Source of the DNA: Candidatus Omnitrophota bacterium
GTDB lineage: Bacteria; Omnitrophota; Gorgyraeia; Zapsychrales; JBDRMG01
Reading direction: 5' to 3'
NCBI GenBank assembly: GCA_043812495.1
Contig: JBDRMG010000047.1
Span: 43,771-107,770 of the forward strand
DNA length: 64,000 bases
Shown here: piece after piece, positions 8,082-37,751 of the stretch
How positions within the stretch are numbered: the first letter of the stretch is position 1
How the letters are laid out: each line of letters starts with the position of its first letter
The notes under the pieces: model-generated
The model's database searches: none
What the model was told of the DNA's origin: nothing
What the model saw: the letters and a program-made list of their open reading frames with translations, nothing else
Program-made: the position numbers and the translations under genes

Positions 8082-8095
8082 TAAAAGGCAACTTA

Positions 8096-8832
8096 CCAAT
8101 TACAAACCCGCATTGTAATTATGGTTATTGAAAGAATAGATTATGCCTTATAGAAAAATACCGTTGGTTAAGCAAAACATATATCACATATGCACCAAAA
8201 GTATTGCCGGTTATATAATCTTTAACTCAGATAAGGAGTATGTAAGAATGTTATCGACCTTAAGCTATTATCAATATGAGGAGATTGACTGTAGATTTTC
8301 TCATTTTCTTTTATCCGAAGAAAGGTCGAAAAAAAGTTTAACTTCTATCCAACCTGCGAAAAAGACTATCAAGATCATAGCCTACTGCCTTATGCCGACG
8401 CATATTCATTTAATTCTCGAGCAGTTAATAGATCAGGGTATTTCGCGATATATGAATTTAGTGCTTAAAAGTTATAGTAAATATTTCAACGCAAAACATA
8501 AACGAAAAGGACCTCTATGGGAAGGAAGGTTCAAGAGTATCCTTATAAAAAGTGATGAGCAATTATTACATTTAACAAGATATATCCACCTTAATCCTGT
8601 GAGTGCGGCTTTAGTCAATTTACCTCAAGATTGGAAATTTTCTTCTTATGGCGAATATATAAATTTAGTTAAAGAAAATACAAAAATTTGCGCTTTCAAT
8701 GATTACTTAGAAATAAGCACTATGCAGTACGAAAAATTTGTCAAGGACCAAATCGGTTATCAAAGAGAGCTGCAACAGATAAAACACTTAGCATTGGAAG
8801 GTTAACCAATTACAAACCCGCATTGTAATTGG
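8096..8832 (+). mobile_element. IS200-like RAYT insertion: HUH tyrosine transposase gene flanked by two same-orientation copies of the hairpin CCAATTACAAACCCGCATTGTAATTGG
   Basis: The hairpin occurs at 8096-8124 and 8806-8832, with near-perfect 9-11 bp stems, bracketing the transposase ORF. The gene is AT-rich relative to its flanks. Confidence 0.75.
8143..8805 (+). CDS. REP-associated tyrosine transposase (IS200/Y1 HUH family)
   Basis: HUH motif (CLMPTHIHLIL). About 220 aa. The hairpins lie immediately outside the ORF. Confidence 0.8.
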   Translation: MPYRKIPLVKQNIYHICTKSIAGYIIFNSDKEYVRMLSTLSYYQYEEIDCRFSHFLLSEERSKKSLTSIQPAKKTIKIIAYCLMPTHIHLILEQLIDQGISRYMNLVLKSYSKYFNAKHKRKGPLWEGRFKSILIKSDEQLLHLTRYIHLNPVSAALVNLPQDWKFSSYGEYINLVKENTKICAFNDYLEISTMQYEKFVKDQIGYQRELQQIKHLALEG

Positions 8833-8848
8833 TTTAAGGAATCGCGCG

Positions 8849-9067
8849 ATGATGGTGAGCGAAATCAAAGAATATTTTCTGACGCGAGAAAAAGGCAAGG
8901 TTTTTCGGTCGGCCATCAATGACACCGAGAGAATTCTTATTGAAGAGGCCCTCAAGCGCTCTCGGGGTAATCAAGTGGACGCGGCCAGAATTTTAGGCGT
9001 CAACCGAAACACGATCAGGACAAAAATTAGAAAATTACAAATAGGCACAACTTCTTATAAGCTATGA
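8849..9067 (+). CDS. Small Fis-type helix-turn-helix DNA-binding protein, translationally coupled to gltB
   Basis: Its C-terminus resembles the Fis/NtrC-type HTH ([22 protein letters not shown]). The stop overlaps the gltB start at 9064. Confidence 0.6.
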
Positions 9068-17976: not shown

Positions 17977-18005
17977 TTGACAATTCAAATGGTTGATTGT
18001 ATATT
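17977..18005 (+). promoter_or_regulatory. Consensus sigma70-like promoter (TTGACA, 17 bp spacer, TATATT) directly upstream of repeat element copy 1
   Basis: ttgaca at 17977-17982, 17 bp spacer, tatatt at 18000-18005. Confidence 0.55.
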
Positions 18006-18010
18006 GCTTC

Positions 18011-18126
18011 TATTCTACTTCGCATAAGCGATGAAAATGATAGTAGATGCTTCGTAGAATATTCTCAGCTGAATAATTCTCCGAAGCCTATACTAGATTT
18101 TTCTACTGGTAAGGCGAAGGAGAATA
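18011..18126 (+). repeat. About 115 nt two-hairpin element (copy 1 of 3); candidate sRNA, leader RNA or MITE
   Basis: About 90% identical to 33123-33236. Hairpin 1 is attctacTTCgc…gcTTCgtagaat and hairpin 2 is tattctccGAAgcc…ggcGAAggagaata. A terminator-like hairpin lies about 55 nt downstream. Confidence 0.7.
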
Positions 18127-18180
18127 ATTCGGGCAATGGCGTTCGGATCATTTACAGATTGATCTGTAGGGGCAACGAGG

Positions 18181-18225
18181 TCCTCAAGAAAATCCAAAGA
18201 AGGATTTTTTGAGGATTTTTTTATT
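18181..18225 (+). terminator. Rho-independent terminator-like hairpin with T-run
   Basis: tcctcaagaaaatccaaagaaggattttttgagga followed by ttttttt. Confidence 0.55.
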
Positions 18226-18311
18226 TTGTCAAAAAGCTCGCCCAGCCATCCCGCCTGAAGTTTTCAAATAATTTCTGAGAATTCGAATCAATCTTCAAAC
18301 TTCTTTAAAAA

Positions 18312-22899: not shown

Positions 22900-23300
22900 C
22901 CAGCCCATCTCCCTCCGGATTTTCTTCCTTGACATAGGGGGGATTTTTGTTAAATTGAGACCGTTGACCCTTACAACGGTCTCATCCTGAACGAAGTCGA
23001 AGGATTTGCGCACATGAGTTACATCTCCCGTTTCGCTTGGTCCGTAACTCATGGGGTTATCCAGGGGTGAAAGTCGTGGAAAAAACACAAAATTGAAAGC
23101 AAATTCCGGCAGCCCGCCATTGATTCATCGGCGGGCTGCCGATTCTATTTAAGCTCAGAAAAGATCGCAGACGTTGCCGGTCAATGATTATAGATTATAG
23201 TGTTTTCTTCTTCGCCCGCCACTAAATCGTTGGCGGGCTCGAAGTAAATTCGCCTCGTCACTTAGGTCATTTCATTCCATGAGTGACGGGCTCATTTAAG
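22900..23300. repeat. Array of heterogeneous hairpins, including a CTTCG-flanked GCCCGCCA REP at 23205-23250
   Basis: gagaccgttg…caacggtctc, catgagttac…gtaactcatg, cgcccgccactaaatcgttggcgggctcgaag and others. Confidence 0.65.
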
Positions 23301-26489: not shown

Positions 26490-26935
26490 CTGCAATGTTC
26501 TCATGTTGCAGCTTCGCAGAATGGATCACTTAGGAATTGTGAAAAGACAGACCACGGGTTTACCCGTGGTGGGTTGCCAAAGGTTTTTCGTGAGCGAAGC
26601 TCACGTAATATACATGGAACCACGGGTTTGCCCGTGGGGATCCATTTGCAGAATATATTGGATTGTTTTCTTCTTCGCCCGCCACTAAATCGTTGGCGGG
26701 CTCGAAGTAAATTAGGTCAGTGACTTATGTTCCTCTAAATGACGTCGCAACTTATGGAGCGAAGCGAACATAAGTTGCTTGACGGAATTTACTCCGTACC
26801 TTTGAGATATGTTGAATTATTTGCTAAAGGTGCGGAACTAATTCGTACAGTCACTTATGTTCATTCACTTTGTTCACTCCATAAGTGACGCACCCATGAG
26901 CCGTCCATAAGTCACGACCTCATTTAAATCAGGAG
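26490..26935. repeat. Hairpin-repeat array (REP plus heterogeneous hairpins)
   Basis: Includes tgcttcgctgcaatgttctcatgttgcagcttcgca, ccacgggtttacccgtgg twice, a CTTCG-flanked REP and cacttatg…cataagtg units. Confidence 0.65.
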
Positions 26936-29984: not shown

Positions 29985-30535
29985 CATATTCTGCTTCGCC
30001 CAAATGTCCTTCGACTTTCGCTCCATTAGAGCGAGAGTCGAACCATTTTCACGTTTGGGCTTCGCAGGAATTATCCGCCTTACATTAATCGGGCTTGACC
30101 ATGCGGGCGGAATCTCGCCGAAGCATGCTTACGCATTCTCCTACAGGCAAGCCCACAGCCCTCTTGCCGAATTCAAGATTCGCCTCTGGCGAGCTGCGAA
30201 GGCGGATAAAATCTGGCCTCGCTGACTTGCCATTTGGAAAAAATCGGTTATACTTTAAATGCGGATAAATCCGCAAAACTATGCCACGGAAAAATGTAAA
30301 ACTTTCCTCCGTGGCATTTTTATTCTACTTCGCCGAATACCCTGCTGCTTGTTGCGGGGATAAAGGCGAAGTAGAACCCTACGAAGCTCCCAAACGAGTT
30401 CTGCGAAGCTTTAGCGAAGCAGAACGAAAGTTTTGGAGCGTAGTAGGGTTGGGTATTCGGTCCTCCTTCGCCAAGGCTTCGGAGGGATTCTGCGAAGCTT
30501 TAGCGAAGCAGAACTTCAAAGAATGAAACATCCAA
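29985..30535. repeat. Dense palindromic repeat region of the TTCG-hairpin superfamily, including a duplicated ttctgcgaagctttagcgaagcagaac unit
   Basis: ttctgcTTCgcccaaa…tttgggcTTCgcaggaa. The 28 nt unit occurs at 30396 and 30488. Fragments of the 115 nt element are also present. Confidence 0.65.
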
Positions 30536-33082: not shown

Positions 33083-33110
33083 TTGACAAAAATATTTTCA
33101 ATGGTATAGT
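33083..33110 (+). promoter_or_regulatory. Consensus sigma70-like promoter (TTGACA, 16 bp, TATAGT) directly upstream of repeat element copy 2
   Basis: ttgaca at 33083-33088 and tatagt at 33105-33110. Confidence 0.5.
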
Positions 33111-33236: not shown

Positions 33237-33298
33237 GGGCAAAGAAGCTCTAAAAAAGCGTTACGCGAACATTGATGAGGAAAGCAATTGATTATTTT

Positions 33299-33335
33299 AA
33301 GGACGGCCTTTTTAATAAGGGCCGTCCTTTCTCTT
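33299..33335. terminator. Terminator-like GC hairpin downstream of element copy 2 (orientation ambiguous)
   Basis: aaggacggcctttttaataagggccgtcctt followed by tctcttc. Confidence 0.4.
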
Positions 33336-33528
33336 CAATGAGACCATGATTTATGGAGCAAAGCGCCCGCCAATTTTTTAAATTTTTAGCGAGGTCTCGC
33401 CAATTCGATAAAATCGAATTGACGGAACATAAGTCATAAGGTCGAATTGACCCAGCCCGCCATTGATTCAGTGGCGGGCTGGGATAAAAAAAATACAAAT
33501 ATAATATTTCATCTAATAGGACAATGAT

Positions 33529-35046: not shown

Positions 35047-35269
35047 TCGACAACTGTAATGAAATATTATAATTGTATTTGCTTAATCCCCAGCCCGCCA
35101 CTGAATCAATAGCGGGCGGTGTCAATTCGGCCTTATGACTTATGTCGTCCGCCACAGAAACAATGGCGGACTCCATAAATCATGGCCTCATCGATAAGCG
35201 AAAGAGGAAGATATGCCAAGACGCAATGATATTCACAAAGTGCTTATAATCGGATCGGGACCCATTATT
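35011..35269 (+). repeat. Direct repeat copy 1 (about 258 bp): DUF1846 3' end, intergenic REPs and the first 19 codons of carB
   Basis: Near-identical to 37494-37751. It carries one extra T near its left end and synonymous differences in the carB codons. Confidence 0.85.
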
Positions 35270-37493: not shown

Positions 37494-37751
37494 AATTTTA
37501 CGTCCAAAAGTTTTTTGAAATCTCCTAATCGACAACTGTAATGAAATATTATAATTGTATTTGCTTAATCCCCAGCCCGCCACTGAATCAATAGCGGGCG
37601 GTGTCAATTCGGCTTTATGACTTATGTCGTCCGCCACAGAAACAATGGCGGACTCCATAAATCATGGCCTCATCGATAAGCGAAAGAGGAAGATATGCCA
37701 AGACGCAATGATATTCACAAAGTTCTCATTATCGGATCAGGCCCCATTATT
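37494..37751 (+). repeat. Direct repeat copy 2 (about 258 bp), providing the intact carB1 start
   Basis: See copy 1. Confidence 0.85.

Follow-up and report, generated by a model that had tools for sequence, protein, structure and literature searches.

A probable non-autonomous palindromic repeat family of Omnitrophota, found in the leaders of nfnAB-gdhA and of a DUF1846 gene

Introduction

Small non-coding repeats are the closest described relatives of the element treated here, a palindromic unit of 116 nt that occurs in three copies in a stretch of 64,000 nucleotides from a Candidatus Omnitrophota bacterium (assembly GCA_043812495.1, contig JBDRMG010000047.1, positions 43,771 to 107,770 of the forward strand; the whole stretch is referred to below as the window). 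Bacterial miniature inverted-repeat transposable elements (MITEs), such as the Correia elements of Neisseria, ERIC/IRU and RUP, are small and non-coding, carry terminal inverted repeats, lie between genes and near to them, are co-transcribed with them and can alter their expression. REPINs are doublets of REP sequences which form hairpins and are mobilised by REP-associated tyrosine transposases (RAYTs) (Bertels & Rainey 2011, PMC3116915; PMC3337134).

A second class of described systems concerns the leader that follows copy 1 of the unit. The targets of ANTAR-domain proteins are defined by hexaloop hairpins, usually two in number, whose loops have A as the first and G as the fourth base, the second hairpin overlapping a terminator (PMC8934654). 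For the Geobacter protein GnfR, an ANTAR response regulator, a target with the consensus CAGGCAANGGCGCC was proposed upstream of nitrogen genes (PMC2995071).

In the original prediction the unit, together with a promoter, was considered to be a small RNA (sRNA) gene family or a riboswitch-like leader. The comparison of the three copies with related loci points to a new family within a known class of repeats, and to neither an sRNA gene nor a riboswitch. With a probability of about 0.85 it is a non-autonomous dispersed palindromic repeat present in a subset of Omnitrophota, MITE-like in its behaviour and REPIN-like in its architecture.

Copies of the repeat in the window

The three predicted copies were all confirmed. 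They are listed here with the two promoters that precede copies 1 and 2.

18011-18126, plus strand: copy 1 of the repeat, TATTCTACTTCGC...GCGAAGGAGAATA, 116 nt, nhmmer 111 bits; absent from the orthologous sites L041 and L044
33122-33236, plus strand: copy 2 of the repeat, nhmmer 109 bits; absent from L048
53754-53940, minus strand: copy 3 of the repeat, a long form of 187 nt with two extra hairpin modules, between a histidine-kinase gene and a REC-GGDEF gene
17977-18005, plus strand: promoter TTGACA-17-TATATT of the nfnAB-gdhA leader, sigma70-type, 11/12 consensus positions, outside the repeat
33083-33110, plus strand: promoter TTGACA-16-TATAGT of the DUF1846 leader, with extended -10 (TGgTATAGT), 11/12 consensus positions, outside the repeat

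The identity of copies 1 and 2 to each other is 92% over 87 nt and 84% over the first 37 nt. The extra modules of copy 3 amount to about 70 nt and consist of two small hairpins inserted in the left half; the same long form recurs at an unrelated locus, L012, upstream of smpB. The first 24 nt of copy 3 make up the last 7-8 codons and the TAG stop codon (53918-53916) of the upstream histidine-kinase gene, and the distance from its other end to the ATG of the REC-GGDEF gene is 18 nt.

Both promoters are real and near-consensus, as had been predicted, each agreeing in 11 of 12 positions. They end 5 nt (copy 1) and 11 nt (copy 2) before the element, and only 10 sites of this strength occur in the whole window, both strands counted. 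A promoter was also looked for upstream of copy 3, and none was found. The predicted downstream hairpins are present, 52 nt 3' of the element in copy 1 and 63 nt in copy 2; the T-rich tail ascribed to both was found to be a genuine T-run only after the hairpin of copy 1, the tail of the other being merely TTTCTCTTC. This layout, with a strong promoter 5-11 nt upstream, a hairpin 52-63 nt downstream and both copies pointing toward the next gene, speaks for the reading as an sRNA family or riboswitch-like leader, in which unit, promoter and terminator form a dedicated transcription unit that acts in trans or sequesters a Shine-Dalgarno (SD) sequence in cis.

Distribution and boundaries of the repeat family

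A pattern scan of one genome per species gave 15 true copies in six metagenome-assembled genomes (MAGs), which are labelled Omnitrophota or, in third-party assemblies, Planctomycetales/Planctomycetia. Two matches in Gammaproteobacteria were due to chance, the remainder of the element being missing there. A scan of metagenomes with a pattern derived from the termini added 23 further DNA stretches, and deduplication left 37 non-identical junction pairs, representing about 35 distinct loci from at least six MAGs. Nothing resembling the element was found in plasmid and phage collections. The Rfam matches of the window at gathering thresholds were tRNAs only, the element being without a family, and with E values up to 10 only sub-threshold, generic terminator-like families appeared (e.g. 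trpB with 24 bits against a cut-off of 59).

The unit is non-coding and has a length of 112-125 nt, or 187 nt in the long form. Every copy starts with TATTCTAC and stops with GGAGAATA, and the DNA outside these ends is unrelated between loci. The 13-nt termini TATTCTACTTCGC and GCGAAGGAGAATA are complementary except for one conserved mismatch. TA stands at both ends of every copy, which fits a TA duplication, yet it is inseparable from the inverted repeat.

The orientation of the copies was counted with crude calling of open reading frames (ORFs) of at least 90 codons. The element runs with both neighbours at about 9 loci and against both at about 10, and its neighbours are divergent at 4 loci and convergent at 3. 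The neighbouring genes are functionally unrelated (rpsI, smpB, glycosyltransferase, V-ATPase-like, histidine-kinase/response-regulator, nfnA and DUF1846 genes), and their stop codons often lie inside either end of the element. Strong promoters on the sense side were found only at copy 1 (5 nt), copy 2 (11 nt) and L018/L040 (46 nt), and on the antisense side at L034 (1 nt), L006 (20 nt) and L027 (22 nt), while a strong promoter on the sense side is missing from copy 3 and from about 30 others. Since distances and sides vary in this manner across the copies, no fixed promoter belongs to the element.

The family is mosaic. The copy at L004 has a miniature left hairpin (mini-H1), the copy at L032 has lost its centre, and the two copies at L021 (4833-4949 and 12681-12816) carry a perfect palindrome of 20 nt, CCTGCCTGCCGGCAGGCAGG, nested in the centre. 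A near-identical relative of this palindrome stands alone in the window at about 812-832. The copies at L023 (44-159) and L025 (216-331) share the 3' flank and have unrelated 5' flanks, and this one-sided match suggests recombination or rearrangement at the repeat. At L035 (3726-3841) the copy lies within an open frame of 1226 codons on the opposite strand, without a Pfam match; either the element was inserted in frame into a gene, or the frame may be open by chance.

Orthologous sites without the repeat

The leaders that flank copies 1 and 2 have counterparts that lack the element. NfnA and the DUF1846 protein of the window are themselves each 100% identical to NCBI MAG proteins encoded on a contig of 108 kb. 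Locus L041 shows the synteny PPDK_N-nfnA-nfnB-gdhA-carA, with NfnA 73% identical, and L044 is another nfnA locus; the 116-nt unit is present at neither. The order of the leader in both is a TTGACA-17 promoter, 12 nt, GGGCAAUGCCGUCC, a linker of 22 nt, GGGCAAAGGCGUCC and a terminator with a U-run. When the element and one TA are subtracted from the copy 1 site, 11 nt remain from the -10 box to P1, the first hairpin of the leader, compared with the 12 nt in L041 and L044. Locus L048, with the synteny RR-PFK-DUF1846-carB and a DUF1846 protein 83% identical, likewise has no unit and keeps the TTGACA-16-TATAGT promoter and a GC hairpin followed by CTTTCTCTT.

The homology of the flanks was tested by local alignment against 500 shuffled sequences. 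No shuffle was as good as the true alignment (0/500) for the upstream flank of copy 1 with that of L044, for the upstream flank of copy 2 with that of L048, for the downstream flank of copy 1 with those of L041 and L044, and for the downstream flank of copy 2 with that of L048. The flanks of the two copies compared with each other were equalled by 203/500 shuffles upstream and 128/500 downstream. The residual similarity that had been ascribed to the two promoters is thus of the order of shuffled sequence, and the idea that promoter and element had been duplicated as one block to give the two copies was rejected, the flanks not being significantly similar.

Because the orthologous flanks are homologous without the element, the promoters and the terminator or hairpin belong to pre-existing host leaders within which the repeat was probably inserted. 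On the aligned sequences, the place of insertion in these two regulatory regions is put after the -10 box and before the first hairpin of the leader. The view that the promoter is part of the unit is not tenable, since copy 3 has none and the promoters of copies 1 and 2 are homologous to those of element-free sites. A junction BLAST for empty sites among the collected loci gave none. Neither the unit nor its frame motif TTCTNCTTCG is present in about 55 kb of related loci, which suggests a lineage-specific expansion of the repeat. The nfnA orthologue P0005 has no leader, the gene abutting its neighbour.

A promoter could also be supplied by the repeat itself or by its junction, so that adjacent genes are rewired, as in MITEs of the Correia type. 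Every copy contains an invariant TAGAAT (within CGTAGAATATTC) with a weak -35-like hexamer 16-18 nt upstream (9/12), and the TATTCT of the 5' end can complete a -10-like hexamer with flanking bases, e.g. at L016. Against this, the strong promoters are external and host-owned, the internal match of only 9/12 is one of about 128 such sites in the window, and no orientation bias toward downstream genes was observed; the explanation is considered very improbable. The alternative named in the original prediction, a promoter-carrying MITE built from the TTCG-hairpin superfamily, was right as to the MITE kind and the superfamily and wrong as to the promoters, which are host DNA.

Folding and covariation of the repeat

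The RNAalifold consensus consists of two hairpins, as had been drawn originally. At minimum energy, 29 of 30 copies fold into a single hairpin that encloses the entire unit, and this long hairpin is more stable than the two-hairpin fold in 30 of 30, by about 14 kcal/mol on average (mean energy -42.7 kcal/mol, against -28.4 for the two separate halves); the two-hairpin structure is thus not the optimal one. The long hairpin of copy 1 has an energy of -39 to -40 kcal/mol (z = -4.8), its minus strand folding similarly, and that of copy 2 has -48 kcal/mol on both strands (z = -7.5 and -8.6). Taken over both strands the z-scores range from -4.5 to -8.6.

When the long-hairpin model was laid on the alignment, 87.4% of the cells were paired, versus at most 53% with a slid partner. 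Ten pairs of the variable middle helix are changed on both sides, and the covariation score was equalled by 2/500 shuffles; paired insertions or deletions (C:G and G:C) were found in the central helix at L018, L027, L035, L039 and L026. The loop of hairpin 2 does differ between copies, as had been noticed, and the differences are matched by complementary ones in hairpin 1. The complementarity of CUCC and GGAG is also present. The mismatches A.G and U.C are invariant and confer polarity on the element, so that one end reads AAGGAG.

Pairs of the G:U type number 26-43 and are not above those of the A:C type (57-70). As both strands fold equally and there is no G:U excess, selection for a structure of the sense-strand RNA specifically is not indicated. 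The constraint is rather one on the palindrome itself, and single-stranded DNA or RNA of either strand could be the form in which it acts.

The strong fold and the covarying middle helix count in favour of an sRNA gene family or a riboswitch. The same data show no preference for one strand, and the remaining evidence points away from this reading: promoter and hairpin persist at element-free orthologous sites, about 30 other copies have unrelated flanks and no promoter or terminator at a fixed distance, the orientation relative to the neighbours is about 50:50, copies lie within operons and overlap stop codons, there is no Rfam family, and, for a riboswitch, the neighbours do not form a functionally coherent set of genes. 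The original prediction had itself named random positions without promoters in other genomes as speaking against an sRNA family or riboswitch, and the copies elsewhere do lie at unrelated sites, in either orientation and with no fixed promoter; this reading is now very improbable. A terminated leader of about 215 nt is expected under the repeat model too, and a positive Northern test could therefore not separate the hypotheses.

The repeat as a proposed mobile and mostly neutral element

The unit behaves as a MITE in that it is short, non-coding, bounded by terminal inverted repeats and dispersed in copies with unrelated flanks and with empty orthologous sites. The structural properties of a REPIN, namely inverted palindromic halves, one long hairpin and compensatory changes, were found as well (criteria from PMC3116915). 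The element would be mobilised by a transposase supplied in trans and would be mostly neutral to the host. Transcription is predicted to start near 18012 and 33117, at its first bases, so that the long hairpin would form the 5' end of both leader RNAs, and under non-inducing conditions the leader of copy 1 would give a terminated RNA of about 215 nt, an attenuation product rather than an sRNA.

Several observations weigh against this explanation. Protein identity to the closest relatives without the element is only 73-83%, and an insertion in this lineage would thus rest on a phylogenetically distant comparison, although loss in the relatives appears less parsimonious. No transposase with matching ends was found in the window. 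Two of the three window copies lie at most 11 nt from a strong -10 box, and for the window alone chance is an unlikely reason for this; for the family as a whole, a general targeting of start sites is not supported, 3 of about 34 loci lying at most 11 nt from a -10 box versus about 2 expected by a rough estimate. The near-invariance of the termini and the centre points to strong constraint or recent transfer, so that a host function is conceivable.

Shine-Dalgarno sequences at the end of the element

Within operons the polar AAGGAG end could act as the SD sequence of the next gene. At L011 the element fills the gap from rplM to rpsI, leaving 2 nt to the stop codon of the former and 1 nt to the ATG of the latter, and at L012 its distance to the ATG of smpB is 4 nt; its AAGGAG is the sole plausible ribosome-binding site for both rpsI and smpB. 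Since AAGGAG is paired within the hairpin, ribosomes finishing the upstream gene probably open it, and ribosomes terminating at or inside the 5' arm would in this way couple the translation of the two genes. The raw count of ORF starts at the element ends is 5 at the sense end and 1 at the antisense end, a contrast which is not significant, and two of the five are doubtful (L001 being of low complexity and L027 having a TTG start). Among the copies that run in the direction of the downstream gene, about 13 in number, only 3 are credible SD donors. As a family-wide property, SD donation was rejected, the counts being anecdotal and without statistical support.

These cases bear on the possibility that the unit is a structural RNA or DNA module recruited by the host, with a REP-like function such as stabilisation of mRNA ends, insulation of operons or SD coupling, its mobility being past or rare. 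The termini and the centre hardly vary between MAGs in which the compared pairs of orthologous proteins differ by 20-27%, compensatory changes keep the hairpin, the element is predicted at the exact 5' end of two leader transcripts, and it holds the only plausible SD sequence of rpsI (L011) and smpB (L012). Such a role is unlikely, given the few credible SD donors and the non-significant contrast of the ends, the relatives that manage without the element at the same loci, its occurrence in both orientations and also between convergent genes, and the nested and deleted variants, which resemble the decay of selfish elements.

It is tempting to speculate that a REPIN-like population of replicators persists in Omnitrophota with the TTCTNCTTCG-framed family, in which the hairpin would be actively maintained, the GGAG end would be co-opted as a portable module for SD supply or coupling in essential operons (rplM-rpsI, smpB), and melted DNA at the start sites of strong promoters might be preferred as a target. 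This proposal is rather doubtful, and the mostly neutral dispersed repeat is preferred as the explanation of the family.

The nfnAB-gdhA leader

The original prediction also placed a cis-regulatory leader within 17977-18225. A leader does exist, in 18127-18227, while the repeat itself is not part of its regulatory structure. It consists of the following features.

18127-18148, plus strand: hexaloop hairpin P1, AUUCGGGC-AAUGGC-GUUCGGAU, with A1 and G4 in the loop and compensatory stem changes in L041 and L044 (UUUAGGGC...GUCCUAAA)
18151-18170, plus strand: linker hairpin UUUACAGAU-UG-AUCUGUAGG, a predicted fold between P1 and P2
18170-18183, plus strand: hexaloop hairpin P2, GGGC-AACGAG-GUCC, its 3' arm doubling as the 5' arm of the terminator
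18179-18227, plus strand: intrinsic terminator, stem UCCUCAAgAAAAUCC / GGAUUUUuUGAGGA followed by a U-run, homologous to the terminators of L041 and L044 (0/500 shuffles)

As the 3' arm of P2 is the 5' arm of the terminator, P2 and the terminator are mutually exclusive. The linker occupies the same place in L041 and L044 with another sequence, self-complementary by eye, for which a hairpin is predicted partly in L041 and not in L044. The two hexaloops are AAUGGC/AACGAG after copy 1, AAUGCC/AAAGGC in L041, AGUGCC/AAAGGU in L044 and AAAGGC/AAAGAA in L042.

The motif GGRCARNGNNGYYC occurs 4 times in the window versus 0.3 expected, always directly after a promoter or the element. A looser motif, GGRCANNGNNGYYC, has 14 instances across the collected loci, after the sigma70 promoters of nfnA, gdhA, carA and a PPDK_N-like gene and also at window position 559. 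The 3' arm of the hexaloop hairpin next to the terminator lay within the terminator stem in 9 of 9 cases, and the upstream P1 hairpins fold freely. Judged from these sequence features, 18127-18227 is probably an antitermination switch of the ANTAR/GnfR type for nfnAB-gdhA. One result that weighs against the proposed scheme is that no ANTAR domain was found in the 39 ORFs of the window that were scanned.

A third leader of the same class lies at 516-606 of the window, with a promoter TTGACA-17-TATATT (516-544) and a hexaloop hairpin GGAC-AGCGAA-GTCC (559-572), the 3' arm of which is the beginning of an intrinsic terminator UCCUCUUA...UAAGAGGA followed by U6. It is located upstream of a repeat-rich region that precedes an ammonium-transporter gene (amt). 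The same combination of hexaloop hairpin and terminator was observed elsewhere in Omnitrophota at L041 (1021 and 8045), L042 (234 and 274) and L043/L045 (1362), in each case after a sigma70 promoter and upstream of PPDK_N-like, carA, gdhA and nfnA genes. The pattern suggests a nitrogen regulon that may be under antitermination of the ANTAR type in Omnitrophota.

An ANTAR leader was also considered for copy 2; a P1-like hairpin, GGGC-AAAGAA-GCUC (33237-33250), lies directly 3' of the element, but there is no overlapping second hairpin and the motif is absent from L048.

The DUF1846 leader and the intergenic region of copy 2

The hairpin downstream of copy 2 belongs to the leader of the DUF1846 gene.

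33300-33336, plus strand: GC hairpin AGGACGGCC...GGCCGUCCU followed by UUCUCUUC, native to the DUF1846 leader; the hairpin of L048 differs in sequence and has the same CTTTCTCTT tail

DUF1846 genes of three Omnitrophota (window 33300-33336, L048 2018-2052 and L050 2437-2470) share an arrangement in which the promoter is followed by about 40-90 nt of leader and then by a GC hairpin. The sequences of these hairpins differ, the CTTTCTCTT tail being common to the window and L048 and replaced by a T-run in L050. The hairpin may be an uncharacterised attenuator or belong to an upstream small ORF.

The intergenic region of copy 2 contains a second, unrelated repeat at 33335-33512, with relatives at 287-311, 787-811, 26736-26760, 35059-35145 and 37541-37627. 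The element and this second repeat account for the length of the region, which is 496 nt versus 244 nt in L048.

Other repeats and a RAYT-like gene in the window

Of the frame motif TTCTNCTTCG the window contains 17 instances versus 0.75 expected, ten of them in other hairpin modules, and on this ground the unit belongs to a larger superfamily of framed palindromes. Other modules framed by TTCTNCTTCG...CGAAGNAGAA are located at 23205, 26480, 26668, 29989, 30323-30376, 30415, 30504, 48918 and 49019. A further family, D1, comprises 12 copies of a CCGCCA-loop-TGGCGG hairpin in the window, and small palindromic repeats, nested in one another, are unusually abundant in the genome.

An ORF of 220 amino acids at 8143-8805 (plus strand) resembles Y1/REP-associated tyrosine transposases, with HUH-like motifs, 'HIHLIL' and 'RYIHLNP' (Pfam Y1_Tnp 38.8 bits; NCBIfam REP_Tyr_transpos 68 bits, below the cut-off of 80). 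It is bracketed at 8095-8120 and 8806-8833 by a palindrome of 29 nt, ACCAATTACAAACCCGCATTGTAATTGGT, which is unrelated to the 116-nt element, and the whole arrangement (8095-8833) lies inside a gln/glt gene cluster. This RAYT-like protein was rejected as the mobiliser of the repeat, as its flanking palindrome is a different one and tblastn gave no relative in any element-bearing locus. An ORF of 72 amino acids at 8849-9064, directly upstream of a large glutamate-synthase gene, contains only a Fis-type HTH_8 domain and resembles a free-standing C-terminal DNA-binding domain of NtrC.

Significance

The analysis removes a false sRNA or riboswitch candidate and shows that a palindromic repeat just after a promoter can mimic a transcription unit. 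It adds a modular and self-nesting family of palindromic repeats in an uncultivated phylum, for which no prior description was found; judged from its junctions, the family appears to tolerate insertion into stop codons and may supply the ribosome-binding site of essential genes. A side product is the testable prediction of a regulon comprising nfnAB-gdhA, gdhA, carA, a PPDK_N-like gene and the leader near amt.

Comparison with known systems

The leader at 18127-18227 agrees with the ANTAR targets of EutV, NasR and AmiR (PMC8934654) in its two ANNGNN hexaloops, the second of which is exclusive with the terminator. With the GnfR targets (PMC2995071) it shares the position upstream of nitrogen-assimilation genes, and its motif GGGCAAAGGCGUCC nearly matches CAGGCAANGGCGCC. 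It differs from the ANTAR targets in that the linker of the Omnitrophota leaders, 22-25 nt long, can itself form a hairpin (after copy 1 and partly in L041), in that some Omnitrophota instances have a single hexaloop hairpin, and in the insertion of the 116-nt repeat upstream of P1 in the present genome. The promoters of the Omnitrophota leaders are of the sigma70 type, whereas the Geobacter targets of GnfR have RpoN promoters.

The repeat itself resembles REPINs in being about 100 nt long, extragenic, symmetric and present in many copies per genome. As in REPINs, two conserved, inverted palindromic units flank a more variable middle, and the whole forms a long hairpin in which compensatory changes are common. 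A GTAG/CTAC tetranucleotide stands beside the stems of the element, again as in REPINs; GTAG is important for cleavage by RAYTs. Unlike REPINs, the repeat does not flank a cognate RAYT gene in the window, where the RAYT-like gene is bracketed by its own palindrome; conservation is as high in the centre as at the ends; and the element is polar, the conserved A.G and U.C mismatches turning one end into an SD-like GGAG. The hosts differ as well, REPINs having been described mainly in Pseudomonas and enterobacteria.

Among the MITEs, a TA target duplication of the sort made by Correia and IS630-type elements would fit the TA at both ends of the repeat. In contrast to the Correia type, the element contains no strong promoter, and in contrast to a plain MITE its complementarity spans the whole element and is maintained by compensation.

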